Assembly: GCA_039815185.1 (NCBI GenBank)
Contig: JBCBZT010000005.1
Coordinates: forward strand, 96,001 to 160,000
Length of the DNA stretch: 64,000 bases
From: Cyanobacteria bacterium P01_A01_bin.123
Lineage (GTDB): Bacteria; Cyanobacteriota; Cyanobacteriia; Phormidesmidales; Phormidesmidaceae
Direction of reading: 5' to 3'
The position numbers and the translations under genes were made by a program. The notes under the pieces are model-generated. The model saw only the letters and a program-made list of their open reading frames with translations. It made no database searches and was not told the DNA's origin. Position 1 is the first letter of the stretch, and each line of letters opens with the position of its first letter. Below, one piece after another: positions 40,129-62,581 of the stretch.

Positions 40129-40202
40129 GGCGAGCGTAGCCAAGTGGTTAAGGCAGTGGATTGTGATTCCACCATTCGCGGGTTCGACCCCCGTCGTTCG
40201 CC
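40129..40202 (+). tRNA. trnH: tRNA-His(GUG), G-1 encoded, CCA not encoded
   Basis: Acceptor GCGAGCG/CGTTCGC; anticodon stem GTGGA/TCCAC with loop TTGTGAT; GGTTCGA T-loop; C73. Confidence 0.97.
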
Positions 40203-40228
40203 CTTATTACAGCGATCGGGTTTCAAGA

Positions 40229-45478: not shown

Positions 45479-45497
45479 TTCGGTGGGAAGATTCCTA
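45479..45497 (-). promoter_or_regulatory. late motif copy upstream of the distal-tail-like gene
   Basis: TAGGAATCTTC-CCAC-CGAA, 39 nt before ATG. Confidence 0.75.
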
Positions 45498-45529
45498 TGG
45501 AGTTTGGATGTCCTTGTTATCGTGGAAGT

Positions 45530-45724
45530 ATGGACTTCAAGCCCCAAGACCCTATCAAATACTTGGAAGGCGGCAAATGGATTGACGCCATTGTTATGGC
45601 TTATGCCGCCCCATTACTGAAGGTTGGCGTTGAAGTAAAGTGTCAGGGCAACGAGCGCTATCAAGTCGTTTCAATTAATTTGGCATACCCTGAGCAATGG
45701 CGATTGATTGGCCCGCCTTTCTAG
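45530..45724 (+). CDS. small hypothetical protein antisense to the tail operon
   Basis: Fills the gap between tape-measure and distal-tail genes; MDFKPQDPIKYLEGGKWIDAIV looks SH3-barrel-like; start may be 45497. Confidence 0.55.
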   Translation: MDFKPQDPIKYLEGGKWIDAIVMAYAAPLLKVGVEVKCQGNERYQVVSINLAYPEQWRLIGPPF

Positions 45725-48700
45725 AGCCCCGATCGCCTCACCATCTGGGCCATACGCTCCATCTCCAAACCTACAACGTCCTGTTGGGGTTGCTGGGTTT
45801 GCAGGGTGTAATAGGCTGGCGGTAGCTTTGCCGATCGATTGCTACGCACCTCATCAATCAGTGTCTGCATTTGCCGCTCAAGCCTTGCGGTACTCATAGC
45901 CACCGGAGCAGCCACCCCAGCGGTAAAGCTACCCATGGGGGCCATCAGGTTGGCAGCATCACGAGCGCTAAGGGCTTCTCTGACCAAAGCTCTGGATTGT
46001 TGCTGGCTGACCACCCGGGTCCCACGTGGAGGTACCAGGAATTCATCTTTGTGAACTTGCACCAAGCCACCTTCGGCCACGCCTCCAGACCTGAGGCTTT
46101 GGGCTGAGCTATCGCTACGAGCACTCTCCAGAATCGCAGCCACCCGCTCAGCATTCTGGCGATCAAGCCGCCGCTGCTCATCCTTGAATTCCCGCTCCCG
46201 ATCGCGCTCTGCATCAGCAAAGGCTTCCTCTAGCGCCCGTTGCTCATCCTCGAAGGCTCGCTGGGCATCCTCGGCTATCTGCTGGCGTTCCTCTTCAAGG
46301 TCTGCAATGCGTTGGGCTGATTGCTCGCGCAGGTCATTCAGCCTGAGTTCCTGGGCCTCTTTGAGCTGTTGGAGCTGCTCTTCATCGGCAATACGCTTCT
46401 GTTGCTGGGCTTCCTGAAACGCCTCCTGCTGGGCTTGTAAGCCGTCCTCAAAGTCTTGTCTGGCCTGCTCTAGTGGAGATAGCTCTAGCTGACCGTTGCG
46501 ATCTGCCTCGGCTAGGACACTGCCTGAATTGTTGAGTACCTCTTGCTCAATTTCTCGCCGTCGCCGTAGTTGCTCGTCTTCGGCAGCGAAGCGTTCTTCA
46601 AGGGCCCTTTCCTCCTCAGCATTAGCAGCCTGGTCTAAGGCAATGCGGCGCTCAACCTCTTGATTGAGGGCAGAGAATTCACGGTTGCCTCGATCGCGAA
46701 TAGCGGCGATCTCCTCCTGAAACGCCCGCTCCTCATTCTGGCGTTCTTGGTCAAGGCGGCGCTGGAGCTGGGCAACATCTTCGGCGTCCCGACGCTGCTG
46801 GGCGGCTATCTTGGCCTCAGAATCTTCCCTGAGCTTTGCAACCTGCTCCTCGGTTTGCTTTTTGAAAGCCGCTTGCTCCTCGTCAAATCGGGCTTCATCT
46901 TGCCGTGCTCGCGCTTCCTCGGCCCGTTCTCGCTGGAGGGCCGAATCATCGAAAGCCCGCTCGGCAGCTTCAGCAGCGGCACGGCGTTGCTCTTGGAGGG
47001 AGTCGGCTTCCGCTTTGGCCGCAGCTTGAGCGGCCTCAATTCTCGCCTGTGATGTGGATTCAGCAACATCTACCCGTTGCTTAGCGATATTTTCCTCAAG
47101 CTGTAGCAGCTCCTCTTGATCGTCGGCGCTAATTGTTCCGGCGTCTGCAAGGGCTTGCAGCTCACTAAGTCGCTCTTGATTGAGCCTCAGCCTTCTATCT
47201 AAGAAGCTCTGCTCGCTGGCCAATCGCTCCTCTTGACTGGCATCTTGATTGGCCAATCGCTCCTGTTCTGCTAGCTCCTCTAGCCTCAAAAGCCTCAGTC
47301 GCTCTTCGAGGGAGTTTTCTTGGCTTCTGGTGGAGTCTTCTAGGTCATTTGACGTCGCTGCTGTGCTGCTGCTAACAACGTTTCTCAGTCCTTGATATGC
47401 CCTGGCAAGTTCATTAATAGTGCCTGCTACTCCCCCAGTCTCAACTACCTCAGGAAACTGACCTAGAACGCCCAATGCTTGAAGGGCTTGGGCGCGTAAC
47501 TCTTGGATGCTGTCAATAAATCCAGTGATCTGATCGATGGCCGGCCCAAAGATGTCGGCTGCGGTTTCTCTGACCTGATCAATGAACTTGATTAGAGCCC
47601 CAATTTGGTCAATCAGGTTAAGGACGGGGCCGATCGGGCCTTGCATGGCAGCGGCAAAGCGCTCACCAAATACCGGAATCCCTTCGGCTGCGTCCTTTAT
47701 TTGATTGAAGGCGGTTATCAGGTCAAACAGAAACTGCACCGTTTCTCCAACGACCGTGATCGCCGTGCCAATACGTTCAATGTTTTGGGCAAATTGGTTG
47801 ATATTGGCGTCATTGCTCAGGAAGTCGGCGAAGGCATCAACCAGCCCAGCGAGTTGATTTGTCGCAGTGTCGAGAACAGACGCGATCGCCTGCCCAAGTC
47901 GCTCTGCAATCTCCGGGTTCTCCTCAAGTACACTTCCTAGCCTCTCCCCGGCCTGGTTAAGCGCGTCAAAGCCTTCGCTAGCGTCGGTTGTGGCCTCAAG
48001 TAAGTCTCTAGAGAACTCCACTACAGCCAGCTTGATAGGTGCTAAGGCTTGCCCGAACTCCGTCAGCGCAGCGCTGATTTGACCTTCCAATAACTCAGCT
48101 TGGCGCTCTAGGGATTGGTTGATGATCTCAAGTGATTCATCAACCGCCCCTGCTGAATTGCTCAGGTTTTCAAGAGTCTGCGCATACTTGCCATCAACCT
48201 GACCGAGTAGGGCTAAGATGGCTGGCGCACCTTCGTCGCCAAAAATCTTTTTGGCTAGCTCAAGCTGCTCTTGATTGTTCAGGTCTTGGGTTGCCGCTGC
48301 AAAGTTGCGGATAGTCTCCTCAAAACCCCTGAAGCTACCGTCCGCGTTGAATGCTAGGTTATCGACCCCGTCGATCTTCGCGGCTAGCCCACCTAGCAAC
48401 TCTTCAGCCTCGCCGCTGGGGGCTGATAGCCTTAGTAGGGAGATTCTTAGTCCTGTAGCTGCGGTAGCTGCCGAAAATCCACCGTCACGTAGCGTTGAAA
48501 ATCCCGCTGCAAGTTGGTCGAAGTCAGCATCCAGAGTGCCGGCCAGCGGCCCCACATCCTGAAAGAACTGGAAAAACTCTTCAATCCCTTGCGCCGAGCC
48601 CGCTGCCGTGGTGTTGATCAGCGTGTTCAGCTTGTCGGTGATACTATCTGCCGACTCGCCCAACTCTTCAAAGTTGTTGATGCCCGTCTGCACCACCCGC

Positions 48701-49302
48701 CCAGTCAGTACCGGGTCTTCGCCCAGTACATCGGACAGCTTGGTGATGCCCGCTAGGTTGGTCTCTACGTCGCTGGCGGTGGCTCCTAGCGTCAGTAAGG
48801 CTGTTGATAGAGCCGCAACACTAGCAGGCGTTTGGCTGGTGATAGCCGCAAGCTCTTTGGCCTGCTCCCCAATTCGCCCAATCTGCTCAGCGCTGGCGTC
48901 TGACTTGGCGTCGAACTCAGTTAATGCAGTCTCAAACGCCTCAAACTCTGTGATTGCCTGCCTGAGAGTATTGGCGACAGAGGCGATCGCCGCCTGAAAG
49001 CCCTGCACCGCGACCTGGGTGAGCTGCTGGCCAATCCCCTGGGCAATGCCCTGAAAGACCCCGCTAAGCCCCTGTGCCTCTTGCTTGGCCTTAGAGGTCT
49101 CCGCCTGTACCCGCTTCAGTTCTGCCGCAACCTGGGCCGCTTCTTTATCGCTCAGCTTGTATTCCTGAGCCAACAACCCCGCTAATCGATTAGCTTTTTC
49201 GGTTTCCGCGTTGACCTTTTGGATCGCTCTCTCAACGCCTTTTATTCCGCCGATTGAGGCAGTGTCGGCGTTGACCTTGATCTTTAGCTCGGTGTCTACC
49301 AC
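45721..49302 (-). CDS. tail tape-measure protein (TP901-like core)
   Basis: 1193 aa helical; AATAATGLRISLLRLSAPS...IFGDEG core; coiled coil; LRSGG...VQVHKDEFLVP tail. Confidence 0.92.
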   Translation of the reverse strand: MVDTELKIKVNADTASIGGIKGVERAIQKVNAETEKANRLAGLLAQEYKLSDKEAAQVAAELKRVQAETSKAKQEAQGLSGVFQGIAQGIGQQLTQVAVQGFQAAIASVANTLRQAITEFEAFETALTEFDAKSDASAEQIGRIGEQAKELAAITSQTPASVAALSTALLTLGATASDVETNLAGITKLSDVLGEDPVLTGRVVQTGINNFEELGESADSITDKLNTLINTTAAGSAQGIEEFFQFFQDVGPLAGTLDADFDQLAAGFSTLRDGGFSAATAATGLRISLLRLSAPSGEAEELLGGLAAKIDGVDNLAFNADGSFRGFEETIRNFAAATQDLNNQEQLELAKKIFGDEGAPAILALLGQVDGKYAQTLENLSNSAGAVDESLEIINQSLERQAELLEGQISAALTEFGQALAPIKLAVVEFSRDLLEATTDASEGFDALNQAGERLGSVLEENPEIAERLGQAIASVLDTATNQLAGLVDAFADFLSNDANINQFAQNIERIGTAITVVGETVQFLFDLITAFNQIKDAAEGIPVFGERFAAAMQGPIGPVLNLIDQIGALIKFIDQVRETAADIFGPAIDQITGFIDSIQELRAQALQALGVLGQFPEVVETGGVAGTINELARAYQGLRNVVSSSTAATSNDLEDSTRSQENSLEERLRLLRLEELAEQERLANQDASQEERLASEQSFLDRRLRLNQERLSELQALADAGTISADDQEELLQLEENIAKQRVDVAESTSQARIEAAQAAAKAEADSLQEQRRAAAEAAERAFDDSALQRERAEEARARQDEARFDEEQAAFKKQTEEQVAKLREDSEAKIAAQQRRDAEDVAQLQRRLDQERQNEERAFQEEIAAIRDRGNREFSALNQEVERRIALDQAANAEEERALEERFAAEDEQLRRRREIEQEVLNNSGSVLAEADRNGQLELSPLEQARQDFEDGLQAQQEAFQEAQQQKRIADEEQLQQLKEAQELRLNDLREQSAQRIADLEEERQQIAEDAQRAFEDEQRALEEAFADAERDREREFKDEQRRLDRQNAERVAAILESARSDSSAQSLRSGGVAEGGLVQVHKDEFLVPPRGTRVVSQQQSRALVREALSARDAANLMAPMGSFTAGVAAPVAMSTARLERQMQTLIDEVRSNRSAKLPPAYYTLQTQQPQQDVVGLEMERMAQMVRRSGL

Positions 49303-49304
49303 GA

Positions 49305-49979
49305 CTACTGAAGGGATGTGTCGTGGCGAGAGTTCCTAGGCGATTGAGTCTGGGGCGCTGCTCGATACTTGGCCCGCGCCTTGGCCCTTTGGTCTTTGGC
49401 CCAATTCTTGAACTCGGCCTTACGCCGCTCTTCTGGCGTTTTTCGCTGCCAGTTCGATTCCTCTAGGACTGCTAGGACTTCGCGGAATGGCTTAGCCGTT
49501 GCCACCTGATAGGCAAGTTCCAGATTGCCGCCGCAGTGGGAGGCGATCGCGGCTATGAGTGTCACCCGGTCGGTCTTGCCACTGTCGCCCTTTTCGCTGC
49601 TGGGATGACGCGGTTTGGGCGGTCGATTGAGGGTTTGGAGAGGAGCCTCGATGATTTCCCCGCCTTCTCGGCGATGAAAGATGAGCCAGCTCATCTCACG
49701 CGGCGTCACCCAGTCCAAGCTGATGCCGTTTAGCTCCAGGATGCGATCGCAGAGGTACTGAAACCGCTGGTGTTCACGGTAAAGGTCATCGACGGTTAGC
49801 TCGTTCGGGGCATCATTGGCGATCGCCCGGATTTCCTCCAGTCGATCCTCAAACTCGAAAATGCCAGTGACTGAACAGCCACTGGCAATGTGGTAGCGCC
49901 CCCCGCGCCCGCGAAACTCAAGTTCGCCAGAGCGCAGGAAGCAATAATCGTGCTCTCTCCTCTCCTCAATCCAGGGCAC
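49305..49979 (-). CDS. tail assembly chaperone-like protein
   Basis: Lies between tail tube and tape measure. Confidence 0.6.
   Translation of the reverse strand: MPWIEERREHDYCFLRSGELEFRGRGGRYHIASGCSVTGIFEFEDRLEEIRAIANDAPNELTVDDLYREHQRFQYLCDRILELNGISLDWVTPREMSWLIFHRREGGEIIEAPLQTLNRPPKPRHPSSEKGDSGKTDRVTLIAAIASHCGGNLELAYQVATAKPFREVLAVLEESNWQRKTPEERRKAEFKNWAKDQRAKARAKYRAAPQTQSPRNSRHDTSLQ
49320..49338 (-). promoter_or_regulatory. late motif copy upstream of the tape-measure gene
   Basis: TAGGAACTCTC-GCCA-CGAC, 36 nt before GTG; lies inside the upstream CDS. Confidence 0.75.
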
Positions 49980-50779
49980 TAGGAAGTTACCCCAGTATCA
50001 AGGTTGAAAATCTCAAACGGCTGCTCCCATCCGCTGGGGGTTTCCGCTGCGAACTCAACACTCAGAGTCGGTACGTCCTCACTCAAGTCGATATTGGGGC
50101 GTGACTTACGAGAGAGGGAAGGGAAGTGAATTACCCAATTGTCAGTTGACTCAGGGGTGTGGAGCTTCCCAAGGAAGCTGATTTTGCCGTACTTCGTCGC
50201 AGTTCCAGAGCCCCCATAGGCGGCGATACTGGTGTAGTTAGTGGGCACGCTATAGCTGATGGGAGCATTCGCTCGGTCGGCGTGAAGCACCAGCTTGTTG
50301 CCCGTGGCATCCACTTGCACTTCGCTAGCGCTAGCTGGTGCCGTAGAGGCATCGGCGGTGTGGATTAACGATTCCGGTTGCCCCCAAGTCCCAAAAGCGT
50401 TGACGTAAGCTTTGATGTAGTTGAGGTTGCCTGCTGTGATGGCGGCATCAGCAATCTCAAAAGCTGCGCTGGCAGGCACTGTAGCCTGCTTAAGTAACGG
50501 CAAAATAACGTTGGTTTGAGTTTTGGGAAACTCATTCAGTGCAAAGCCGAGCTGCGCCCAATCGGTGTACTGAGTGCTGAGGGTGAGCGTGTCGGTCACC
50601 TCGCTCTCTGCTGAGGATTTGGTCTTTCGGACGCCCTTAACGTAGCCCTTGGCTTCGCGGTTCTCAGACTCGCTGGTGAAGGTGAAGTCAAATAGGAAAA
50701 GCTCAATCAGTCTTTGTGCCACTTCCCCACCGCTGAGGTTTAGGGTTTGGGCGTAGCAATCGCCGAGGCCGGAAAGCAT
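49979..50779 (-). CDS. major tail tube protein
   Basis: Position, size and beta-rich composition. Confidence 0.7.
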   Translation of the reverse strand: MLSGLGDCYAQTLNLSGGEVAQRLIELFLFDFTFTSESENREAKGYVKGVRKTKSSAESEVTDTLTLSTQYTDWAQLGFALNEFPKTQTNVILPLLKQATVPASAAFEIADAAITAGNLNYIKAYVNAFGTWGQPESLIHTADASTAPASASEVQVDATGNKLVLHADRANAPISYSVPTNYTSIAAYGGSGTATKYGKISFLGKLHTPESTDNWVIHFPSLSRKSRPNIDLSEDVPTLSVEFAAETPSGWEQPFEIFNLDTGVTS

Positions 50780-50802
50780 AGGAATCTCTCTCGCGATGGT
50801 TG

Positions 50803-50821
50803 GTCGCGGGGAGAGTTCCTA
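50803..50821 (-). promoter_or_regulatory. late motif copy upstream of the tail tube gene
   Basis: TAGGAACTCTC-CCCG-CGAC, 42 nt before ATG. Confidence 0.75.
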
Positions 50822-50834
50822 TGCTGGGCGAGCC

Positions 50835-51041
50835 CTATTCGCTGGCGTCTTCCTTAGCTTCAGGCTCAACAAACGCCACAATCTTGCCTTGGCCCAGTAG
50901 CGCTTGGGTGACGGGGTGATCGGCAGGTAGCGTGACGCGATCGTTCATGTACTTCATCCCGCCTAGGTCTTTAAAGTTGATGTCGCCTTTGCAGACGAAC
51001 TCGGCGTTTTCAACGGGCGTAGTTTTCTTGGTTGTAGGCAT
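50835..51041 (-). CDS. small phage hypothetical protein
   Basis: AAGGA RBS; has its own upstream motif copy. Confidence 0.7.
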   Translation of the reverse strand: MPTTKKTTPVENAEFVCKGDINFKDLGGMKYMNDRVTLPADHPVTQALLGQGKIVAFVEPEAKEDASE

Positions 51042-51061
51042 AGTAAAAATCCTTGAAACGT

Positions 51062-51080
51062 TTCGCTGCGAGGATTCCTA
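51062..51080 (-). promoter_or_regulatory. late motif copy upstream of the 68-aa gene
   Basis: TAGGAATCCTC-GCAG-CGAA, 39 nt before ATG 51041. Confidence 0.75.
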
Positions 51081-51512
51081 GCCGACGCCGCGAATCATCA
51101 TGGGGAACTGAAAGCCTATTTCAAACTCCCAGTCCGAATCTGTTCGGCCAAGGAACTTGAAGCCGCTGCTGTAGCGCATTGCCCCGCATTTGGGCGGGCA
51201 GAATCCAATCAGATATTGGCTAATTTGGTTTTGTAGGTCGAACAAATCACCGTCGCCCCTCAGTCCACGTACCCGCCCGTAGATCGTGGCAATGCGGGTA
51301 ATAGCCTGAATTCGTCTATTGGCCCCAATCTTGCCCTGTGGCTTCTCGTCGAAACACACCAGGGTCAAAACCCCTTTACTCGTGGATTCTAGAAGCTCGC
51401 CGTACTCTTTGGGCTTCTCGGGCAAGGCATGGACGATCAGCCCGGTGTCGCGCAGGAATGCAAGCCGATCGACAATTGCTTGCTCGATCTCAACAGGATT
51501 GGGATTAGCCAT
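51078..51512 (-). CDS. tail terminator-like (Mu gp37-type) protein
   Basis: IEQAIVDRL...LIGFCPP; position before the tube gene. Confidence 0.65.
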   Translation of the reverse strand: MANPNPVEIEQAIVDRLAFLRDTGLIVHALPEKPKEYGELLESTSKGVLTLVCFDEKPQGKIGANRRIQAITRIATIYGRVRGLRGDGDLFDLQNQISQYLIGFCPPKCGAMRYSSGFKFLGRTDSDWEFEIGFQFPMMIRGVG

Positions 51513-51936
51513 CTACGTGCCTCTTCAGGATTTGCTCAATTGCATCGATATGCCGCTGGGCAAAGCCCATGTATCGGCGCTGCGGCATACGCTTAGTCCC
51601 TCGCTGATGCCAGAGTCCAGCGGTTCGATTAGCCGTCGTTTCTACACTTGACTGCGTTGCGCTGGCTGGGCGAGCTGTGATGCCAGAAACCAAGGAGCTG
51701 GTGTCTCTGAGGATGGCAGATGGAGCCTTGCGTTTCCGCTTCTGGATCAGTGTTGACTGCGCTAACGGTTGCCATGGGTTGCCGTCTGGGTCTTGCTGCT
51801 TGGCGAAGTTCTCCTTGGTCTGAGCCTCCATGTAAAGCGCTGCCTCGTTGAGCGCAGGCGTCCAATCCCTAGTCCGGTCTTCCACATCAGCGATCACCCG
51901 CAGCACTGCGTCGGCTTCGGTTTCAAGTTCAAACAT
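51505..51936 (-). CDS. phage virion morphogenesis/tail-completion protein
   Basis: NFAKQQDPDGNPWQPL..ST, ILRDT..L, HQRG...MPQRRYMG. Confidence 0.88.
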   Translation of the reverse strand: MFELETEADAVLRVIADVEDRTRDWTPALNEAALYMEAQTKENFAKQQDPDGNPWQPLAQSTLIQKRKRKAPSAILRDTSSLVSGITARPASATQSSVETTANRTAGLWHQRGTKRMPQRRYMGFAQRHIDAIEQILKRHVDG

Positions 51937-52318: not shown

Positions 52319-52335
52319 TTGGGTAGTGGCATAGC

Positions 52336-52379
52336 GTCGCTGCGAGAGTTCCTATTGGACTAGGAATTCTTAGATCGCA
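52336..52379. promoter_or_regulatory. back-to-back divergent late motif copies
   Basis: Minus TAGGAACTCTC-GCAG-CGAC (36 nt to ATG 52318); plus TAGGAATTCTT-AGAT-CGCA (38 nt to ATG 52399). Confidence 0.75.
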
Positions 52380-52398
52380 TTCCCCGCGTGATCGCTTT

Positions 52399-55300
52399 AT
52401 GGCAGCACCCAGCCTATCTGGATTGACAGCTTTTGTAACCACTCAAAGTGATTTGACCCCAGGGTCTGCTTACTCATCAGGATTTGCAGTGCATTCGGTT
52501 GCCAGTTCGACAACAACTTATGGGACTGGCCCACGCCTCAGAGGGTCTGCTGGCACGTCTTTACCCAACATAGGGACAGCTCGGTATGAGCCTGCATCTA
52601 GCTTTGACATGTCTGGCAGTGGTTGCTTGGTTGGAATGTTTCGATTGTCTTTTGATAACAGTGCAACGACGCAAGCCGAGAATGGCCTAATTGTTGGCTG
52701 GAGTGATGGTTCTTCGACCGAATTGTTTTCGATTAGTGGACTAGATTTGAGTCCAGAAGGAGATCCTTTTGATTATTTTGCTTTGTCTGGTGGCATTACC
52801 CCAGATCTTTCGGAAGGGTCGCCAAACCTAGGGAGTTTAACTCAAGCTATTTTCGGGGCGAGTAGAAACCTCGCGAGTGGGGGAACTGCCCCTAACTGGA
52901 TATTTGATCAGGTCTACTGGGTAAACGATTTAACTCTGTTAGACGGAGAAATAGCAAACCCATCTTCATTTTTGTGGCTTAAATCAGAGATTGACAATCT
53001 CACTCCAGCGCTTTCATCAAACATTGGGTCTGATCGGCAAATAAGTTTACCCTTTCCTCTAAAAAATCAAGCAGCTTACTTTAATTCTGAGGGAGAGTTT
53101 TTAGCTTTCCAGCAAAGCGACGGCATCAAGCGTCGGTACAAGTCAGGATTTTTAAGATATTTAATTGAGCCTTCGCTGGCGACCGATTATCAAAGGCATG
53201 CTTTTGGATCCTTGTCGTCTCCCGAAGCGTTTGACGTTGAGGTGTCGAGCTTAGCTCATGCTTCGGCCACCATTGAGATTGAGAGTTACTCATTCGTGTC
53301 GGGTGGTGGAACAGTAACTTATCGATCGCCAGTAGTGGTAGCTGGCGGGGCCGATTCTGGCTTCAACACTGTTCACTACATTGGTGGCTCGATTAGTAAT
53401 CGCCAGGTTTCTGGCGTATCTGGCAGAACAACTCAGGTGCAAATTGATTGCACTCCAGGTCAGGACTTAGGTGCGGTCGGCTTTCAATTAGGGAGTAATG
53501 CCCAGCTTGCCCTTAACCCCTCTAGCGCAGGTGCCAGCGCCATTGCTTTAACTGGTATATCTGCGACGGGGACTTTGGATGTCGTTAATCTGACATCGAA
53601 TGCCATCACTATTACGATCGCTTCGGGGCAGACGTTTACAACAGCCAATAACACGGGTGGAGTTGTGACGGTTCAGCAGCCCCAAATCGCACTGACAGCT
53701 CTCAACTTTGCCGATGGTGTTCGTGTGTTTGCGGCTCGGCAGCAAACTTTTCGAGTCAACAGCGCTGACATTAATACAGGGACAAACGAAATCACTCTAG
53801 GTGCCGATGACGAGACTGGAGCGACTTTTGCGGGGCAGACCACAAGCCCCGCAACGCTTCTGCTGCTGACACTGGCTGATGGGGCAACAATCCCCACAAC
53901 CAGCCCTCAGATCGAGAGTGGCAACCTGTACTACGTAGTTGCCAACACTGCTGGCGTCGTCCAGATTTCAGAGACCGAAGGCGGAACAGCAATTGCGTTT
54001 ACGGATGCTGGCACCGAAAGTGGTGGACAACTCCTTCAGCTCAAAGCCGAAACTGAGTTGATTAATGCGGTCGTGTCAGGGGGGGATGGACTGTCCAGCC
54101 CGCTCACACTACCCACTGGGGCAGTTCTCAGTGTTGCAGCGCAGCATCGCCCAAGCGCAGCATCTGCTAGCACCTTGTTTGAAAGACAGGTTTCCTGGGG
54201 GAGTGATGGGGCTGCGATCACAGAGACCTTTTCGGCGACAAACAACCCTGACACTTTGCATAACGCTTTGGTTGGGGCGACTATTCAAAGCAATAGTGGT
54301 CTTGCGGTCACTGTCACCAGCGACGGGGCGACGGTTGCTGGGCTCGCATTTGACCTGAGTGGCGACATTCAAGTTGATGCGAACGCCATTACAGATGCCG
54401 TCATATCTTTCCCAGACGGCTACCTGTGGATGGTCTATATGCGCTCCACAGAGATGGGGATCAGGTTTATCAGGAACCAATTCACTGCGGTTGGGCTGAT
54501 GGACTTCCGGTTTAACTCAGGTCTAACCATTGACAATGTTGCTGATGGCATCCGGAACTCGCCTGCTACGACACTGACGGTATACGGCAATGTTCAGCCA
54601 ACAACAGGCTCAACTGTTGTAGCTACTGAGTCTGGGACGATTCACATTGTCCCGTTCTTTGTGACAAGTATTGCTTCAGCGGGCGGAGGCAGCAGTGCCC
54701 CAACTGTCGAGCAGATTTGGACGCATAGCGATCGCACTCTAACGGGTTCCCAGGCAACCAACATCGCCGCCCTGGGAACACCTAATACTTTTAAGGCCGA
54801 TGTTTCAGGCTTGAGCACGTTTGACCCGGCAACTCAGACAGTTGATGTCGGCAGGGTCGCTGGCAATGCTGTTACTGGAACAGGGGATTTTCAGGCTGAT
54901 CTGTCGGGACTGACGACGGCAGTTGGCAATATCCCTACCAACCCATTGCTCACTACGGATATGAGGCTAAACAACCTGAATGCTCCGATCGGTGATATCC
55001 CGACTACTGCCCCGCTCGATGCTGCGGCAATTCAGAGCGCAGCCGCAGCAGCTCTGACAGCCTATGACCCGCCAACACGAGCAGAGTTGACGGCTGACAA
55101 AGCTGAAGTACTCCTAGCCATCAATGGTCTCCCCGCCCCCAGTAATGCAACCTTAGCCAATCAGCAAGCCATCTTGACTGCCGTAGGTGCTTTGCCTCAA
55201 AGCAAGGAGGGATATAGCCTGAGCGCTGCTGGGGTTACTGCCGTACAGTCTGGTCTTGCAACTCCTACCGACGTCACCGTGACCGTTGATGGTGGTTTCA

Positions 55301-55467: not shown

Positions 55468-56192
55468 CGGTCTTAGCCCGATACCTCAGCAACGGCGCGA
55501 CTCAATACCTGGCAATCGCGCTGGGCTTTCAATCGGTTGTTGCAGATCAGGAACTCTCCCTGCAGGAACTCCTGTTTTTTGCCCGCTCTGTCAACGCTGA
55601 GATGAATCCAGGTATTTTCAATCTGCATATTCCGCAGGGCACGGATTACACCCTAGCGGTGACTGTGACAGGCGGCCCATCATTTAGGGCCCTGGCCACA
55701 AGTGCGGGCACAAACCAGATTCAGCTAATCGATCAGCTCTCTATCTCCCTCAGCACGAATGATAAGGTGGCGTTCGGCAATGCGATCGGAACCATTACGG
55801 CAGATGCAGGGCTGGGGTCAAAATCCCTGAATATTTCCCCGCTACTGTTTGATATCCCCCGCAACACTAAGGGCCAGAAGGTTTCTGACGTCACAGGGCA
55901 AACGGCAGAGGCTAAAATCTATAGCGACCTGGGGCAAACGGCAGTGGTGACCCTTACCGCAAACCTGACTGATGCCCCGACAGATGGGTTGATCCGGTTG
56001 AGTCTCTCTGATGCTCAGACCGCATCGCTTGCTGCGAATCTACCCGCTGGTGAATTCCTGACCGAGACAGAGATTCAATCTCGCAAGTACAGTGGCTCAG
56101 AATACCTCTGGCAGCTTGAGCTAACTGACACGAATGCCATTACCCGGCGCGTGCTTCAGGGTATTGTCCTCGTTTCGCCACAGGGGGTCTAA
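55464..56192 (+). CDS. phage structural protein (BppU-N-like adaptor)
   Basis: LHIPQGTDY...GLIRLSLSDAQTASL...WQLEL...RVLQGIV; ATGA-coupled. Confidence 0.65.
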   Translation: MTVLARYLSNGATQYLAIALGFQSVVADQELSLQELLFFARSVNAEMNPGIFNLHIPQGTDYTLAVTVTGGPSFRALATSAGTNQIQLIDQLSISLSTNDKVAFGNAIGTITADAGLGSKSLNISPLLFDIPRNTKGQKVSDVTGQTAEAKIYSDLGQTAVVTLTANLTDAPTDGLIRLSLSDAQTASLAANLPAGEFLTETEIQSRKYSGSEYLWQLELTDTNAITRRVLQGIVLVSPQGV

Positions 56193-56644
56193 TGGCTGAG
56201 CAGAGCGTTTGCGTTGCAATCACACCAGAGGTTGCTGGGGTCAGGATTGGTCATGGCTTCCCAATCCAAATCAATGGCAGCACTCAGGATGGCACGTTCT
56301 TAGCGCCGTCTTACCCGGCATCAGCAACCCTTTCGGCCCTGCGCGTCGTAACCCTCAATAGCAGCAATCAATGGGTTTATGCCGACAAAGACACCAGTGG
56401 TCATATCAATACAGCGATCGCGTTGCTGACTACAGCAGTCAACTCTGGCAGCTCAGTCCGTCCGGTGTTGCAAGGCTTGGTCGCCGATAGCAGTTGGAGC
56501 TGGTCTTTAGATACCCTCCTGTGGCTTGGTGCCAATGGGTTGTTAACCCAGACTCCACCAACGACAGGGTTTCTGAGGCAACTCGCCACGATTGTTAGCC
56601 CCACTCAAATCAACTTCAACCCACAGGAGGGTATTTCGTTGTGA
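56192..56644 (+). CDS. phage structural protein (capsid-fibre/cement-like)
   Basis: LSALRVV...LWLGANGLLTQTPPTTGF; TAATG-coupled. Confidence 0.7.
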   Translation: MAEQSVCVAITPEVAGVRIGHGFPIQINGSTQDGTFLAPSYPASATLSALRVVTLNSSNQWVYADKDTSGHINTAIALLTTAVNSGSSVRPVLQGLVADSSWSWSLDTLLWLGANGLLTQTPPTTGFLRQLATIVSPTQINFNPQEGISL

Positions 56645-57144
56645 GTTCAAACAGATTTCTCAGTGTCGTTAGCGGGGTCAAAACCCTGCTAACCGCGATT
56701 GCAACTTCGGCTGGTGCGGGTGACGCCAATAAAATTATCGCCACTGACGGTAGTGGCAAAATCGACATCACCTTTATGCCTTCTGGGGTTGGCGCAGATA
56801 CCCTCAGTATTGAGGCAAGCGAGAACTTGAGTGCCGGCGACTTCATTAATATCCACGATGTAAGCGGGGCAAGGGTTCGCAAGGCCGACAACTCCAACAC
56901 TCGCCCTGCTCATGGCTTTGTCCTTAGCTCGGTTACTAGCGGCGCTAACGCGACCGTCTACCTCTCCGGTGCCAACACTGGGTTAACAAGCTTAACGCCA
57001 GGTACGCGCTATTACCTGGGCACTGCCGGGGCCGCTACGGCAACTGCCCCCAGTGCATCAGGGGAAATTGTTCAGTATCTGGGCGCGGCAAATAGCACCA
57101 CAAGCTTGGTGTTTGAAGATAACGAGTACACCGCGATCTCATAA
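56641..57144 (+). CDS. phage structural protein, paralogous to the preceding gene
   Basis: ASENLSAGDFINI...LTPGTRYYLG; GGAGG RBS. Confidence 0.75.
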   Translation: MSSNRFLSVVSGVKTLLTAIATSAGAGDANKIIATDGSGKIDITFMPSGVGADTLSIEASENLSAGDFINIHDVSGARVRKADNSNTRPAHGFVLSSVTSGANATVYLSGANTGLTSLTPGTRYYLGTAGAATATAPSASGEIVQYLGAANSTTSLVFEDNEYTAIS

Positions 57145-57146
57145 GT

Positions 57147-57629
57147 ATGGCCAAGACCCTGATTGAGCTAGCAAGCGGCATCCGTCGAGCCAGCGTTGAA
57201 CTCTCGACATACTTTGAAGGGCTGATGAATGCTGCCGATGCGGCTGCTGTGAGGACGGCGTTATCGGCGGCGGCTCTCAATGTGGCTCAAGCATTCACTA
57301 AGGGGCAGCGATCAGCGCCTGTCGCTCTATCCATTAGTAGCGGTGTTGTCGCAATCGACGCCAGCGCTTCAAATATTTTTACCCTAAGCCTCACCGAAAA
57401 TGTGACCAGTGTCACGCTCAGCAACTTAGCGGCAGGCACTAATTTCGACCTGCATATCACCCAGGATGCGACTGGTGGGCGTACTGTAGTGGGTTGGGCT
57501 GCTGCCTTTAAATGGCCTGGGGGGACAGCGCCGACAATAACCAGTGCTGCCAATGCCGAGGACTTCATCAGCTTTGAGTCGGCGGATGGTACGACAGTTA
57601 AAGGCTTCTATGCACAGGACTTCGGCTGA
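57147..57629 (+). CDS. phage fibre-type protein
   Basis: ITQDATGGRTV..W...KWPGGTAPTIT motif, common in tail-fibre proteins. Confidence 0.75.
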   Translation: MAKTLIELASGIRRASVELSTYFEGLMNAADAAAVRTALSAAALNVAQAFTKGQRSAPVALSISSGVVAIDASASNIFTLSLTENVTSVTLSNLAAGTNFDLHITQDATGGRTVVGWAAAFKWPGGTAPTITSAANAEDFISFESADGTTVKGFYAQDFG

Positions 57630-58360
57630 TGAGCGTATTGACGGTACCTGCTGCGATCACGTCTCAACAAGCATCAGTTGCTAGCCCACTACTCACCGAT
57701 CTTCTGTTATGGGCAGAGAACTACAGTCAAGGAACATGGGCCGATAGCCATAGCAGCGGTAACGACCTAACAATGATTGGAACCGTAGCAGATGATGGCG
57801 CTGGCTCTGCCGTTTATGGCAGCAGCACAAGCAACTACCATGCTTCAACATCGAACGATGCCTTGCGCACCATCTCTACATCTTCGTTTAGCTTCTCTCT
57901 TGTTGTAACGGTGACGAGCAGTTCAACTTTTAGCAACAGTGGCGTTGTTGCAAGTGTTTATCGAGCGTCAGGGAACAGCCGGGGATGGTTTGTTGACTTC
58001 CCGAACAACACCACGGCTCGGTTCCTGACCTCTGAGAACGGGCAAAGTGGTGGAAGCCTGAACATCGTCAGCGTTGCCACCAGTATAAGCCTGGACACTG
58101 AATACACAGTTCAGGGCTACTACGATTCTGAAAACGATCAGATCGCCATCCGAGTGAATGATGGGGCATTTGGTGTTACGACTGGCGTCACCGTGATCAA
58201 CACCTCTACTTCCGATTTCCGCCTAGGTCAGATTGCTGATCCGGGTAATCGCTTCATCGGCGAAATCAGGAAAGTCATTCTGTGGGGTCGAAAGCTTTCG
58301 ACCATCGAATTCGATCAGGTGTATAACGGTGGTAGCCCGATTGGTTACCCTGGCCCATGA
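57629..58360 (+). CDS. LamG/concanavalin A-like lectin-domain protein
   Basis: FRLG...FIGEIRKVILWGRKLS..E...VYNGG C-terminal signature. Confidence 0.75.
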   Translation: MSVLTVPAAITSQQASVASPLLTDLLLWAENYSQGTWADSHSSGNDLTMIGTVADDGAGSAVYGSSTSNYHASTSNDALRTISTSSFSFSLVVTVTSSSTFSNSGVVASVYRASGNSRGWFVDFPNNTTARFLTSENGQSGGSLNIVSVATSISLDTEYTVQGYYDSENDQIAIRVNDGAFGVTTGVTVINTSTSDFRLGQIADPGNRFIGEIRKVILWGRKLSTIEFDQVYNGGSPIGYPGP

Positions 58361-58851
58361 CGTTGTCTCAAATCGATACAAAAATGAGACGCCTGTTTTA
58401 GCCCGCTGGTTAGTGTGCCAATTTAAGAAATTCGATGGGCTACTTTAGGACTAAGTGTGACAGTTGGGGGTATGTGCCAGTTGGCTGAACCCCTTTAAAT
58501 CTCATTAAGTCCACGAAGAGGACAGCAAAACGCCAAGCCTCTTTCATATCAATGCTTTCGGGTACTTTTAGGGCTTTGACTAGTTGCCTGTTAAGCAAAC
58601 ATTATCAGCCTGGACTAGGCTAAATCCCTCGTCTCACAGGTGTCTCATCAATTCAAGCGCTACGATTGGGCCGACGATCGTTGAGGTTCGATGTGTCCCC
58701 TGTATTCATCTGGCAACGCAACGCTGGCCCATGGGAGACGATTGCGGAGGGTGAAAACCTGAGGCTTGGCTTCCCCCTTCAATACAACGGCAAGTCGTGG
58801 CCAGAAATCGCGATCGAAGGCTGGCGCGGCGTCTACATTACTCAATCGCAA

Positions 58852-58903
58852 AATGTTCGCCATGAACAATTCCGGAATTCCGTAAAAGTTCACGGCGAAC
58901 ATT
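58852..58903 (-). terminator. 16-bp hairpin directly after the head-tail adaptor stop codon
   Basis: AATGTTCGCCATGAAC-N20-GTTCACGGCGAACATT; the single mismatch is a G:U pair on the minus strand. Confidence 0.55.
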
Positions 58904-59299
58904 CTAGGGTCTGAGGCTCGGGATGAATGATCGCGTCCCCCGTCGCCTCGCTGCAACCCCATCGCACTTAACGCAGTCAAGGGCTGCTGCTTCAAATCCA
59001 GTCGGCACGCTCAGCCCCTTCGCTGAATCGTAAGAGGCTTGCAATGCCAGTAGCGATTCAATAGGCTTGGCTAACCCGGTGAACTTGGCCCCATCCGCCT
59101 CAGTTAAGGTCTGCGCGGTTTGGTTCTGTTCTAACCACTTGGCGGCTACGTAGAAGGGGCGGTAGTGAGTTACGGCCCCGACATCTACCCCCGCGCTCAT
59201 CACCAGCAGTTCGGTTAGGTAGGCATCATCCGCAGCACTGGCCCCACTACGTTCTTTGGCACGGGCGAGGGCGTCAGTTATCACAAGGTAGGTGGTCAC
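58904..59299 (-). CDS. head-tail adaptor-like protein
   Basis: Helical 131-aa protein downstream of the capsid gene. Confidence 0.6.
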   Translation of the reverse strand: MTTYLVITDALARAKERSGASAADDAYLTELLVMSAGVDVGAVTHYRPFYVAAKWLEQNQTAQTLTEADGAKFTGLAKPIESLLALQASYDSAKGLSVPTGFEAAALDCVKCDGVAARRRGTRSFIPSLRP

Positions 59300-59302
59300 C
59301 TG

Positions 59303-59533
59303 CTAGAGCCTCACTACCCAGTCTTCAGCTAGAACGTCGCTTTGAGATGTTACCCAAGGAACAAGATCGCCTTGGGCGGTCTTTATGAAGATGTAGGGCA
59401 GGGTCATTTTTGAGTGTTCATCTGGGCGTTGCAGCTCTAAGTACATTCCTTTGCCGTTCCATCCGGCGCGATGAGCTTGTCCGCCCCTCTTCAGGGCATG
59501 TAATGCGTCGCCAAAATCCAATGGTGTGCTCAT
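59303..59533 (-). CDS. tad2: DUF2829-family protein (Tad2-like anti-defence sponge)
   Basis: FGDAL..LK.G....RAGWNGKGMYL...PYI......G..VPW..SQSDVLAEDW. Confidence 0.85.
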   Translation of the reverse strand: MSTPLDFGDALHALKRGGQAHRAGWNGKGMYLELQRPDEHSKMTLPYIFIKTAQGDLVPWVTSQSDVLAEDWVVRL

Positions 59534-59928
59534 TGTTGTTCCTCTAGGTTGATTTCGATAAGCTCTTGAGCAATCTCGGGGCTGAACTCCTTCTCAATGA
59601 TTCGCAGGAAGCTAGCATCCCATCCATCAGGATGCTTTTGGGCTCCGACGCGATCGCCGATTTCCTTGATAGCTGCCCAGTCGCGCTTGCCTTCAGCGTC
59701 ATAGATGCGCTTCAGTTCTTCAAGGCGTTCTGCCGCCATTCTTAGCAGGGCATCTTGAGTTGGCTGTGGCGACTCAGGCTTACCCTGTTCAGCGACCGGA
59801 ATTCCGGTCGTGGCCTCCAGGCCCAGCGCGATCGCCAGATCCTGAGGCACAAAGGTACAGCCAGCAGGGTAACGTTTCCCGCGCCATCCCGTTGATTCAG
59901 TGAGGGGTGGTATCTCAACAAAACTCAT
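59530..59928 (-). CDS. phage hypothetical protein
   Basis: 132-aa ORF coupled to the next gene. Confidence 0.75.
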   Translation of the reverse strand: MSFVEIPPLTESTGWRGKRYPAGCTFVPQDLAIALGLEATTGIPVAEQGKPESPQPTQDALLRMAAERLEELKRIYDAEGKRDWAAIKEIGDRVGAQKHPDGWDASFLRIIEKEFSPEIAQELIEINLEEQQ

Positions 59929-59940
59929 TGGTTGACCCCC

Positions 59941-61113
59941 CTACGCAGTCGGGCGTTGCACGCGAATCACGTAATAGGCTTGTGGGTCAGTGATGACCGG
60001 CAATCCCGTTTGATAGCTTTCACCCCCCATGCCGACCGGCTTCTTCTCATTCATCCAAGTGTGAATGGTGCGTCCGCTGGCGTCTTTGCCAGGGTTGCGA
60101 CCCACACCGTAATAGCCCAAGGTGTCGTTGAGGACGATGGAGCCATCAGTAAAGCCGCTGATATCAGTATTAGTGGCCCCCACATAGTCGCTGGCGATTT
60201 CGTAGTTGCGCTGGGTGCTACCGACCATCAATAGATAGTCGTAGCCCGCTTCTACATCCATGTAACGATTGAAGCCAACCTCGCTTTCGTAGCCGCCGTT
60301 GTAGCGGGTTAACACCGGATAGCCTTCGTCTGTGAACACATCATCCAGGATTTGATTGCTCACCCGGTTGGTTGAGCTGACAATCTCACTGTTGGAGTTG
60401 ACCACCACGAATGAGGTGCGCTTGATCACCTCAGCGTTAAGCCGCAGAGTCCTTGCAAGATAAGGCGTGGCATACATGCTGGTCACGTCATACCCTAGGC
60501 CATTGAGCTTTTCTAAGCCTGCTTCAATGTCATCAAATGGATCGTAGGTATTCAGGTTCCAGCCTTGAGGCGCAGCCTGGGTGCCACCAGGAATCGTAAC
60601 GACGTGGTCAGCAGGACGATAGTAATTGATCGGCTCCATTTGGCCATTGATCGTTTGGCGAGTGGTTACTGCTGTCAGGAGTGCCTGCCAACGCTGAATC
60701 TCATTCTTGATGACATGAGGCTGAAGCAGCTCGAGGTCAGTCCATCCGATGACCCGCGACATCGCTTCCATGTCGCCGCCGCGCATCAGCAGCTTGCGCA
60801 AGTCATCGTAGTCCTTGCCAGTTAAGTCTTTTTGAGTGTCGGTATGGCCCAGGTCAACGCGGAAGCTGCCGATCAGATGGCCGTTCTTTTGCTTCTGAGT
60901 TGGGCTGTAACGGTTGTTGTCGAGGGCAGGGCGAGTCCGATAACGAACCTGAGTTTCTTCGTAGGCGTTCTCTTCAACAATTCGCTCAGGGAGGATTCGT
61001 GCGCCAAGTAGCGGCTGACGCTCGGAGCCAAATTGAGCTTGAGGATCGAGCGCGAGGCGCTGAAAATAACGCTCCTCTTGCAACTCTTCATAAAGTTCGT
61101 AAAAGGTTTTCAT
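59941..61113 (-). CDS. major capsid protein (lambda E-like)
   Basis: ~390 aa after decoration and scaffold genes; E..RWQAL, W...T.DPFDDIE, LPVITDP; ATG at 61113 with GAGG RBS. Confidence 0.85.
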   Translation of the reverse strand: MKTFYELYEELQEERYFQRLALDPQAQFGSERQPLLGARILPERIVEENAYEETQVRYRTRPALDNNRYSPTQKQKNGHLIGSFRVDLGHTDTQKDLTGKDYDDLRKLLMRGGDMEAMSRVIGWTDLELLQPHVIKNEIQRWQALLTAVTTRQTINGQMEPINYYRPADHVVTIPGGTQAAPQGWNLNTYDPFDDIEAGLEKLNGLGYDVTSMYATPYLARTLRLNAEVIKRTSFVVVNSNSEIVSSTNRVSNQILDDVFTDEGYPVLTRYNGGYESEVGFNRYMDVEAGYDYLLMVGSTQRNYEIASDYVGATNTDISGFTDGSIVLNDTLGYYGVGRNPGKDASGRTIHTWMNEKKPVGMGGESYQTGLPVITDPQAYYVIRVQRPTA

Positions 61114-61135
61114 TGCGGCCTCTCGCGCCTGTGAT

Positions 61136-61154
61136 GTCAGCGAGAGGATTCCTA
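61136..61154 (-). promoter_or_regulatory. late motif copy upstream of the capsid gene
   Basis: TAGGAATCCTC-TCGC-TGAC, 41 nt before ATG. Confidence 0.75.
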
Positions 61155-61158
61155 TGCG

Positions 61159-61186
61159 CAAAAACCCCGTGATTGCTCACGGGGTT
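61159..61186 (-). terminator. intrinsic terminator between the decoration and capsid genes
   Basis: Minus strand AACCCCGTGA-GCAA-TCACGGGGTT-TTTG. Confidence 0.7.
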
Positions 61187-61211
61187 ACTTTGTCAATATC
61201 GAGCGTTGATC

Positions 61212-61835
61212 TTAACTGGGGTAGACCAGGCAATCATAAAGTTCTCGAATCTTGGCTTGTTGAGCCGCTGTCATATCAGCCCATCCAGGTAGCTTATTCT
61301 CGTAAATCTGGGTGTCATGACGCACTAGGGTGATGCCTGCATCCTGCTCTAGATATTCGTTTTGGAAAGCTACGAGATGGATCTCATCATCATTGGCAAC
61401 ATCAGCCACGCCAAAGCCTGTACCTGCAGCGCGTTCAGTATAGGTGCGACCTACTAGCACCCCGGAGCGAGCAACAGTGCGCCCACTGGAGCCCGGATAG
61501 TCATAACTATCGCCATCTGCGGTATTAGCTGCCAAGGTGCCCGTTAGGGTGGTGGCCCCTCGGTTGGCACGCTTCTCAAGAGCGAGCAGCTTGCCGCTGC
61601 CAAAATCTAGAATGACTCCTCTCAAGATGTTGCCCTGCAGTGCTTGGGTCAGCGTTAGCTCAACGCCACTTCCTGCCACTGCCGCGCCACTTAGGGTTAG
61701 CGTCTGTTCATCGGAATAGCCAAATTCACTAATCTCTGCCTGGGTACCTGCTGGCACCAAGCATCTGTCGGTAAGCTCCTCAGCCGCCCATTCGGGCATT
61801 TGCATGGTTTGGGATTCCCAGGTCACTCCAGGCAT
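61212..61835 (-). CDS. head decoration-like protein
   Basis: Lies between scaffold and capsid; SGVLVGR, IYENKLP. Confidence 0.65.
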   Translation of the reverse strand: MPGVTWESQTMQMPEWAAEELTDRCLVPAGTQAEISEFGYSDEQTLTLSGAAVAGSGVELTLTQALQGNILRGVILDFGSGKLLALEKRANRGATTLTGTLAANTADGDSYDYPGSSGRTVARSGVLVGRTYTERAAGTGFGVADVANDDEIHLVAFQNEYLEQDAGITLVRHDTQIYENKLPGWADMTAAQQAKIRELYDCLVYPS

Positions 61836-61862
61836 GGTTAAAGTCCTCGTTTTTGTTAGGCG

Positions 61863-62543
61863 TTATTGTTCGGTGGCAAGGGATTTAGCGCCTGACCTGT
61901 GCTTGCTCAGGTAGCTAGTGAGAGGATTCAAGTCACTCCCACCCTTGGGTGAGCCACTGGGCAGTTGGGTCTTCTTGCCCTTGGTGTCGTTGCCGCCCTT
62001 GGGTGGTTCAGTTGTGGGGAACAGTGCAGGGATGAAGGCTTTCAGCGCGTCATCGCCCTCGACGTACTCACGCAGTGGCTTATCGCCCAACTTGACGCCA
62101 TCGTCTGCGATCGCCAGCTCATCAACCTTGTCACCAAGCAGCTTCTCGAGCACCTCAACACTCGCCCCTGCCTTGGTCGCAACCTCAGACAGTTTGGTGC
62201 GGCGTTCGGCGGTTTTTACCTTCCCTTCTGCTTCAGTGGCTCGGGTTTCGAGTGCGGTCTTATCCGTTCGCAGCTTTTCAGCTTCGGAGACCAGCCCCGT
62301 TACTTTGGTCTGTGCGTTTTCTAGGATTGCATCGACATCGCCTTCAATGCCTAGCGCCTTGCCGATCGCTTCCAGAGCGGTCTGCATCGACTGGGCCTTG
62401 GTGGTGGCGTTACGCTTTTCGCCAATGATCTCGAAATTCTTGCTGTTGAGGCGTTCCACTTCTCCTTCAACCGCAGATACCAGATCTGCCGCATCATCAA
62501 CTTCCAGAGCCTTGATGCGCTTTAGGGCTTCCTTGTAATCCAT
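61863..62543 (-). CDS. capsid scaffolding-like protein
   Basis: Acidic coiled coil with flexible G/P-rich tail. Confidence 0.7.
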   Translation of the reverse strand: MDYKEALKRIKALEVDDAADLVSAVEGEVERLNSKNFEIIGEKRNATTKAQSMQTALEAIGKALGIEGDVDAILENAQTKVTGLVSEAEKLRTDKTALETRATEAEGKVKTAERRTKLSEVATKAGASVEVLEKLLGDKVDELAIADDGVKLGDKPLREYVEGDDALKAFIPALFPTTEPPKGGNDTKGKKTQLPSGSPKGGSDLNPLTSYLSKHRSGAKSLATEQ

Positions 62544-62562
62544 TGCGATACTGCTTCAGTAG

Positions 62563-62581
62563 GTCGCGGGGATGATTCCTA
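62563..62581 (-). promoter_or_regulatory. late motif copy upstream of the scaffold gene
   Basis: TAGGAATCATC-CCCG-CGAC, 38 nt before ATG. Confidence 0.75.

Follow-up and report, generated by a model that had tools for sequence, protein, structure and literature searches.

How does a temperate phage of cyanobacteria switch on the many separate units that encode its virion? The question is raised by a 64,000-nucleotide (nt) stretch of Cyanobacteria bacterium P01_A01_bin.123 (G000:C82:96001-160000, hereafter the window), in which a prophage of ~65 kb begins and runs past the window end. An earlier note, made from the letters of this stretch, had described eight copies of a motif, TAGGAAYYHTC-N4-CGAM, at a near-constant distance upstream of start codons, and had proposed a distributed class of late promoters read by a phage-encoded or co-opted alternative sigma factor. 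Our analysis, which is computational throughout, leads to a more specific reading, to which we assign a probability of about three in four: the copies are late promoters without a −35 element that are read by the prophage's own SigF/SigJ-like sigma factor, and most of them also act as translation locks.

When up to two mismatches were allowed, the pattern matched nine times in the window, compared to 1.67 ± 1.27 matches expected by chance, and none of 100 shuffles reached nine. The eight copies lie where the earlier note had placed them: six are exact and all on the minus strand (45497, 49338, 50821, 51080, 52354, and 62581), one has a single mismatch (61154, minus), and one has two (52361, plus). 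Their remeasured distances to the start codon, 39, 36, 42, 39, 36, 38, 41, and 38 nt in this order, agree with the range of 36–42 nt given there, as do the location of one copy (49338) inside a coding sequence, the open reading frame (ORF) at 49305-49979, and the reuse of the upstream TAG stop by two copies (51080 and 62581). The ninth match (51936, plus) lacks TAGG and is not among the eight. That every downstream gene is structural holds for capsid, scaffold, tape measure, and others, but four ORFs, of 177, 266, 129, and 1022 amino acids (aa), have no PHROG match, and the sole PHROG match of the 68-aa ORF is a family of unknown function; judging by synteny, the 266-aa ORF may hold the tail-tube position. 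The whole prophage contains 14 TAGG-type copies, all 33–42 nt before start codons and all in its late region; the six outside the window precede their genes by 33–40 nt. A shorter core occurs 15 times in the late region (31.6 kb), never in the early region (28.4 kb), and 159 times genome-wide. Nor is the motif equally frequent in host DNA, which the earlier note had named as grounds for abandoning its proposal: in the genome of 8.09 Mb, all eight exact matches, two of them outside the window, and 11 of the 15 one-mismatch matches fall within the prophage. A weight matrix was trained on 12 known sites, so that its two new matches alone are independent. On host contigs it matched C28:3097 (minus strand, 36 nt before an ATG) and C10:53464 (plus strand), both of which may be phage remnants.

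The closest described relative of these boxes is the J-box of Nostoc, GGGaAtacT, an extended −10 promoter with a weak −35 region that is anchored by one mapped start (PMC6495340; this and the other papers cited here were available to us in part, and our statements refer to those parts). Alignment on the T of the J-box gives T-16 A-15 G-14 G-13 A-12 A-11 Y Y H T-7 C-6 N4 Y-1 G+1. If the J-box register applies, TAGG (−16 to −13) would be the extended −10 element, AAYYHT the −10 hexamer, C−6 with the four following bases the discriminator, and C−1/G+1 the start. In this register, A−11 and T−7 are conserved in 14 of 14 sites, as is G+1, which falls on the G of the CGA near which the earlier note had guessed the start, and the leaders from the predicted +1 to the start codon measure ~17–26 nt. 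Across the 14 sites, no column from −56 to −18 rose above the 99% null. Conservation ends at −17, so that no conserved −35 element is seen, as had been reported before. The resemblance of the core to SigJ and SigF −10 boxes was thus borne out for A−11, T−7, and the weak or missing −35 region, but not for the G trio of the J-box (−15 to −13): position −15 is an A in each of the 14 TAGG-type sites, where TAGG replaces GGG, which makes the phage box J-box-like without the trio.

The predicted start can also be viewed in a wider set, since +1 lies outside the pattern used to collect it: among 160 sites from 21 phages, picked by RGGAAYnnT and distance alone, a purine occupies the predicted +1 in 88%, and among 54 J-box-like sites of the host in 74%. 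A PilB-like gene of the host has a GGG box, TGGGCACACT, 37 nt before its ATG. Taken together, it is very probable from these patterns that the motif is a promoter. Promoters of extracytoplasmic function sigma factors have a −35 element GGAAC and a −10 element CGT/CGA. A reading of that kind, with GGAAC of the motif as −35 and CGAC as −10, was rejected, because the spacer would be 8 nt instead of 16–17 nt and the sigma factor of the prophage is SigF-like. Temperate phages often use late activators such as Mu C or P2 Ogr, and the motif might be the binding site of a non-sigma phage activator, or of a repressor, working with the primary sigma factor of the host; a small ORF after the box at C82 168842, possibly of ribbon-helix-helix type by our own reading of the sequence, would fit. 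However, the box is not palindromic, no TATAAT-like hexamer lies downstream of it, sigma-70-type promoters in the region are at chance level (10 versus 10.2), and just 17–26 nt separate the predicted +1 from the start codon. We therefore regard such an activator site as very improbable.

The alternative sigma factor that the earlier note had predicted, and for which it had suggested searching the rest of the prophage, is indeed encoded there, by an intact ORF past the window (table). Its best family is the cyanobacterial SigF (NF005644), with a score of 166.8 bits, below the curated cut-off of 261, compared to 399–414 bits for host-type proteins. It has the layout of a group 3 sigma-70 factor, with regions 2, 3, and 4 and without region 1.1; Pfam finds region 2 strongly and region 4 below cut-off. 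A structure model shows helices for domains 2, 3, and 4, and its top Foldseek match is the Staphylococcus aureus SigB open complex, with a low TM-score. Region 2 retains the family signature, while the region 4.2 helix reads AGL where nine of nine host-type rows have SRR, TRR, or SRH, so that the basic residues of the host protein are missing, and the 3.2 linker is ~13 aa shorter than in host-type proteins. The altered helix and the shorter linker suggest that −35 contacts have been lost, and the loss of the basic residues agrees with the absence of −35 conservation at the boxes. In a quick tree of 56 rows, the phage sigma falls into an 18-row group (Shimodaira–Hasegawa-like approximate likelihood-ratio test, 94), apart from the two SigF/SigJ paralogues of the host. 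Its named homologues come from Leptolyngbya and Nodosilinea bins, and cultured phage records hold no close relative, all matches being below 60% identity and the 30 listed at most 35%. On this evidence, it is likely that the boxes are read mainly by the phage sigma.

The sigma gene has no box of its own. Divergent from it lies a gene for a XerC-like recombinase (C82:169879-170700, minus strand; L001:10879-11700), which here and in G062, G082, and G564 has a box 39–42 nt upstream; because this box recurs in several phages, the late regulon seems to include the recombinase. Between the two genes, an imperfect palindrome, GTGAT..TTTCA G TGAAATCAC (L001:11779-11800), is a possible operator.

Do the box and the sigma factor travel together elsewhere? 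Four of 172 other genomes of the order have a sigma match above the host band (G157, G082, G062, and G007). Although the prophages in G062 and G157 were found by their sigma alone, both carry the same box, 33–42 nt upstream of many late genes: G062 has four clustered exact matches beside the sigma gene and 12 TAGG sites, and G157 has eight listed TAGGAA sites and two exact matches, one of them near the sigma gene. Further exact matches occur in G159 (two, on one 9-kb phage contig), in G026 (two, scattered), and singly in 22 genomes. We then surveyed 24 sequences, comprising 18 of the 22 viral records with such a sigma (one partial) and six genomic regions, and in 14 of them a TAGGA/GGAA word ranks first among the upstream hexamers. 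Of eight prophages picked by their capsid gene, six have a SigF-like sigma, and the two without it show no enriched GGAA word. Among 55 further capsid-picked loci, seven sigma-positive ones hold 27 sites in 191 kb and 26 sigma-negative ones of at least 15 kb hold 19 sites in 538 kb, the 22 loci below 15 kb being left out; the contrast is a loose one, with several duplicates among the loci and many negatives that do not look to be of cyanobacterial origin.

The box itself varies between phages: it is of the TAGG type in G173, G176, G183, and G186, of the CGGG type in G187, and mixed in others. In G330, where region 2.4 of the sigma is changed, three late genes are preceded by GGCAACCCTA, a GGC-type box found by eye. 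A proline or lysine before PRR was considered as the residue that separates TAGG from GGG boxes and is present in six TAGG phages, but the rule is broken by G186 and G182. G564 was dropped as a case of boxes without sigma, since its record begins at the XerC-like gene, just where the sigma gene would lie, and the contigs of G159 (9 kb) and G036 (19 kb) are too short to judge whether a sigma is present. A de novo expectation-maximization motif search in 12 phages, an insensitive method, returned only HIP1 repeats or noise. When viral contigs were searched with one sequence of the sigma or of the capsid, no match appeared, whereas alignment-based searches did find matches; those of genomes and metagenomes with the sigma alignment gave mostly host-type SigF/SigJ loci among the matches listed, judged by identity, and were not used. 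Two regions contain other repeated elements. The prophage at G292:C14 (~23800, 29900, and 46200; L292, L293) contains, besides its two sigma genes, a second box, CACGGGCATGATAG, of which two copies lie a few nt before an ATG and are possibly leaderless promoters, and the G093:C3 region (L302-L305), without a SigF-like sigma, has the element CTGGTTCA(A)GTTCA 31–37 nt before at least five genes.

Motif and leader are also predicted to form hairpins with each other, which the earlier note had missed. At the 12 own sites, the native combination of motif and leader folds with −9.55 kcal/mol on average, compared to −7.14 kcal/mol after the heads (positions 1–16) have been exchanged between sites (permutation P=5e-4). 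Controls of 12 motif-free starts each, 150 sets in all, give a difference of 0.06 ± 0.71 that is never as strong, and 54 host J-box-like sites, a list that includes chance matches, show no pairing effect (P=0.61), whereas native exceeds swapped in 18 of the 19 phages with at least four sites. The excess of pairing lies at −6 to +2 and involves, on the other side, the 10 nt that precede the start codon. If the 5′ end is shifted to motif position 17, opening of the start region costs 5.7 instead of 10.2 kcal/mol, leveling off at 16–17, and the drop exceeds 1 kcal/mol at nine of the 12 own sites; at 50821, which has the strongest hairpin, RNA from the predicted +1 folds like shuffles (z −0.04). 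Orthologous genes, judged by eye, keep the hairpin with different sequences. From this folding, it seems more likely than not, if less so than the promoter function, that most copies double as a functional translation lock on read-through RNA.

The short, constant distance to the start codon and the systematic motif–leader pairing would suit an RNA processing site or translational operator, in which cleavage or opening of the hairpin at the C/G, by a factor of phage or host origin, frees the ribosome site on long transcripts. However, some copies stand at divergent heads (52354−/52361+; C82 163500+ and 168731−/168842+), where no co-oriented RNA arrives, and these are the very copies without hairpins. 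As the A−11/T−7/pyrimidine–purine pattern and the sigma gene moreover favor a promoter, there is little chance that the motif acts solely at the RNA level.

Several results weigh against our reading. The lock is absent or weak at four to five of the 12 own sites, and the 45497 site is still closed in the short RNA (12.6 kcal/mol). All eight tandem TAGG sites of this prophage pair better than all four divergent ones, but this contrast was spotted after the fact, and it has P=0.04 overall and P=0.14 when this prophage is omitted. The promoters could be real and the hairpins a mere by-product of a C-rich discriminator beside a G-rich ribosome site, with no regulatory role; indeed, swapped heads pair too (−7.14 versus −5.53 kcal/mol for shuffled leaders), and outside this prophage the contrast between tandem and divergent sites does not reach significance. 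The nearly uniform sign across the 19 phages, the null results for control starts and host J-box-like sites, and the hairpins kept at orthologous genes argue for a lock instead, and we consider a by-product unlikely, though well worth keeping in mind.

Other adverse results concern what reads the boxes. In 10 of the 24 surveyed sequences, several of them fragments and G007 of the same sigma clade among them, no GGAA word is the top hexamer; TAGG and xGGG boxes occur together in many phages, without a sigma residue that separates the two cleanly. The 58-kb contig G014, which has head and tail genes and no detectable sigma or replication genes, keeps ~3 GGG/AGG sites before late genes, and a few weak sites are present in G570 (38 kb), where no sigma was found. 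Moreover, the starts were set by a crude gene caller, the phages are related to each other, and the sigma tree was built by a quick method. Alternatively, the boxes might be read mainly by the SigJ or SigF of the host, tying the virion genes to its motility/hormogonium program, while the phage sigma only boosted them or acted on host genes. The boxes share the register and −10 core of the J-box, GGG boxes occur in many related phages, G014 retains sites without a sigma, and the host possesses two paralogues of SigF/SigJ as well as an excess of J-box-like sites before its genes (36 versus 12.6 expected). On the other hand, A−15 in all 14 TAGG-type sites departs from a G trio described as absolutely conserved (PMC6495340), TAGGAAYYHTC is not enriched before host genes (1/29), G014 resembles an element that has lost its early region, and in the capsid-picked prophages the box tracks the phage sigma. 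We consider reading by the host factors improbable, and reading by the phage sigma remains our preferred explanation.

With the phage sigma as reader, late expression would proceed as follows. After induction, the sigma, having no box of its own, would be made from the early side and steer the RNA polymerase of the host simultaneously to every late unit through ~14 short promoters, so that no antiterminator would be needed. The 10 nt directly ahead of the start codon would be paired to bases −10 to −1, so that RNA from upstream would hide the ribosome site, while RNA begun at +1 lacks that arm, and each late unit would be translated solely from RNA begun at its own box. Finally, A−15 in place of G would keep the set of boxes largely beyond the host SigF/SigJ, which is the weakest step. 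The preference of the earlier note for distributed promoters over antitermination from one promoter accords with the divergent pair 52354−/52361+, a terminator-like hairpin before the capsid box (not among the predictions of a simple terminator scan), and the lack of a Q-like match among the 69 prophage proteins.

Table. Boxes and associated features of the prophage (plain positions refer to the window, C82 positions to the contig)
Feature	Position	Strand	Remarks
attL	40152..40216	+	65-bp repeat overlapping 3′ part of tRNA-His (40130-40203)
Box before 177-aa ORF (start 45458)	45479..45497	-	Predicted +1 45481; pairs with GGGAGG leader, -13.6 kcal/mol
Box inside 3′ end of 224-aa ORF (49305-49979), before tape measure gene (start 49302)	49320..49338	-	Predicted +1 49322
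Box and leader of 266-aa ORF	50777..50821	-	Strongest predicted hairpin, -19.9 kcal/mol, z -6.9; predicted +1 50805
Box before 68-aa ORF, reusing TAG stop of 144-aa ORF	51062..51080	-	Predicted hairpin -11.2 kcal/mol; predicted +1 51064
Box at divergent head, before 129-aa ORF and Neck1 gene	52336..52354	-	Without hairpin (-1.7); predicted +1 52338
Back-to-back divergent box before 1022-aa ORF and tail-fibre-like cluster	52361..52379	+	Predicted +1 52377
Box before major capsid gene (ATG 61113)	61136..61154	-	Predicted hairpin -14.3 kcal/mol over GAGAGG; predicted +1 61138
Terminator-like hairpin and T run, directly upstream of capsid box	61157..61195	-	-19 kcal/mol, z -4.7
Box before scaffold gene (start 62543), reusing TAG stop of 373-aa ORF	62563..62581	-	Predicted +1 62565
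Box before Mu F-like gene	C82 161916	-	Outside window
Box before portal gene	C82 163500	+	Outside window
Box before portal remnant	C82 166887	-	Outside window
Box before terS	C82 168731	-	Outside window
Box before 72-aa ORF	C82 168842	+	Outside window
TGGG variant box before XerC-like recombinase gene	C82 170740	-	Extra to the 14 TAGG-type sites
Sigma gene, 262 aa, intact ORF	C82:170894-171682	+	~11 kb past window
Box before 183-aa ORF	C82 172951	-	Outside window
Partner 65-bp repeat	C82:201330-201394		Beside integrase gene

The size of the prophage follows from the 65-bp repeats at its two ends; it is integrated at a tRNA-His gene, and the phage is temperate. Its portal gene (C82:163536-164975, plus strand) is inverted relative to the remaining head genes, and a 65-aa remnant of the portal 5′ part (C82:166651-166848, minus strand) follows terL with a box of its own, which suggests rearrangement; G157 seemingly has two portal-like ORFs as well. 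The tail operon ends with a glycoside hydrolase family 10 gene (window 41003-42082, minus strand), the head region contains a sulfotransferase-like gene (L001:6559-7395, plus strand), and an 892-aa ORF (L002:7178-9856, plus strand) matches Pfam eCIS_core. Just upstream of the 45497 box, a small plus-strand ORF (window 45499-45728) is a variable insert, because related contigs of runs X3 and X4 have 13 nt in its place. Window positions 54435-54475 match contigs of X2 and X3, where the match is flanked by sequences resembling the repeats of a CRISPR (clustered regularly interspaced short palindromic repeats) array; this suggests a spacer against the phage of this prophage.

Cyanobacterial siphoviruses have been known since 2009 to carry group 3 sigma genes, for which the sources available to us name no target; here, such a sigma receives a precise putative regulon, with +1 predicted to the base. 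Our results suggest that these temperate phages would switch on their virion genes via many short promoters, not by antitermination. A comparison of the sigma and box variants across ~20 phages could teach how an extended −10 element is read by SigF/SigJ-type proteins, and for cyanobacterial engineering, a compact and orthogonal promoter that brings its own read-through lock would be useful. Tentatively, and with the balance of probability still against it, the picture may extend to a widespread group of cyanobacterial temperate phages, which would have taken the motility sigma of the host (SigF/SigJ), dropped its −35 reading, and retuned the extended −10 element (GGG to TAGG, or GGC in one phage), so that each late promoter becomes a 40-nt cassette that is unseen by the host motility program and untranslatable on read-through RNA. 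If true, this would amount to a two-layer prophage firewall and a natural panel of orthogonal sigma–promoter pairs for the extended −10 code.

Each component has precedents, namely phage sigmas that serve late promoters of their own, J-box promoters, and T4-type locks; in the openly accessible literature that we covered, we found no account of such promoters in cyanophages and none that joins the J-box with a phage. With the J-box/SigJ system of Nostoc punctiforme (PMC6495340), the prophage shares the extended −10 element, the conserved A and T, the weak −35 region, the register to +1, and a group 3 sigma; it differs in TAGG for GGG, the added C−6 and C−1 G+1, the restriction to prophage late genes, leaders of 17–26 nt with predicted locks, and a sigma of a phage clade. 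The SigF promoter PpilA1-54 of Synechocystis PCC 6803 (PMC2532724) likewise has a purine-rich −12 core (GGG at −15 to −13) and stringent group 3 recognition, but also a −32 element, which is not conserved in the prophage boxes. Sigma genes are present in other cyanobacterial siphoviruses and prophages, such as P-SS2 (PMC2784084), S-LBS1, and SFprophage (PMC6157547, PMC12284385): the group 3 sigma of P-SS2 lies next to the terminase genes and was proposed to read a "particular regulon" that the available text does not name (PMC2784084), and a link with host metabolism has been drawn for prophage sigmas (PMC12284385). Ma-LMM01, by comparison, is reported to use SigA-like promoters throughout (PMC5780444).

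A parallel for the overall logic is found in lytic phages. T4 gp55 (PMC5780444, PMC3014915) and the middle/late sigmas of SPO1 and SP10 (PMC9429907) also serve many separate late promoters, which in T4 consist of a −10 element only (PMC5780444, PMC3014915), and here, too, the phage encodes the sigma and the motif precedes late genes and is absent from early ones. Unlike those phages, ours is temperate and integrated at tRNA-His, its sigma derives from the SigF/SigJ family, and no gp33/gp45-like match is present among its 69 proteins. The locks of T4 gene e and I-TevI (PMC3014915), in which the 5′ arm of a hairpin contains a late promoter and RNA started upstream has its ribosome site concealed by that hairpin, have the same layout as the hairpins found here in silico, which cover the ribosome site with their 5′ arm upstream of +1. 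Whereas the T4 locks described there concern a few single genes, those of the prophage are predicted at most late promoters and would be built from the variable discriminator of the promoter itself.

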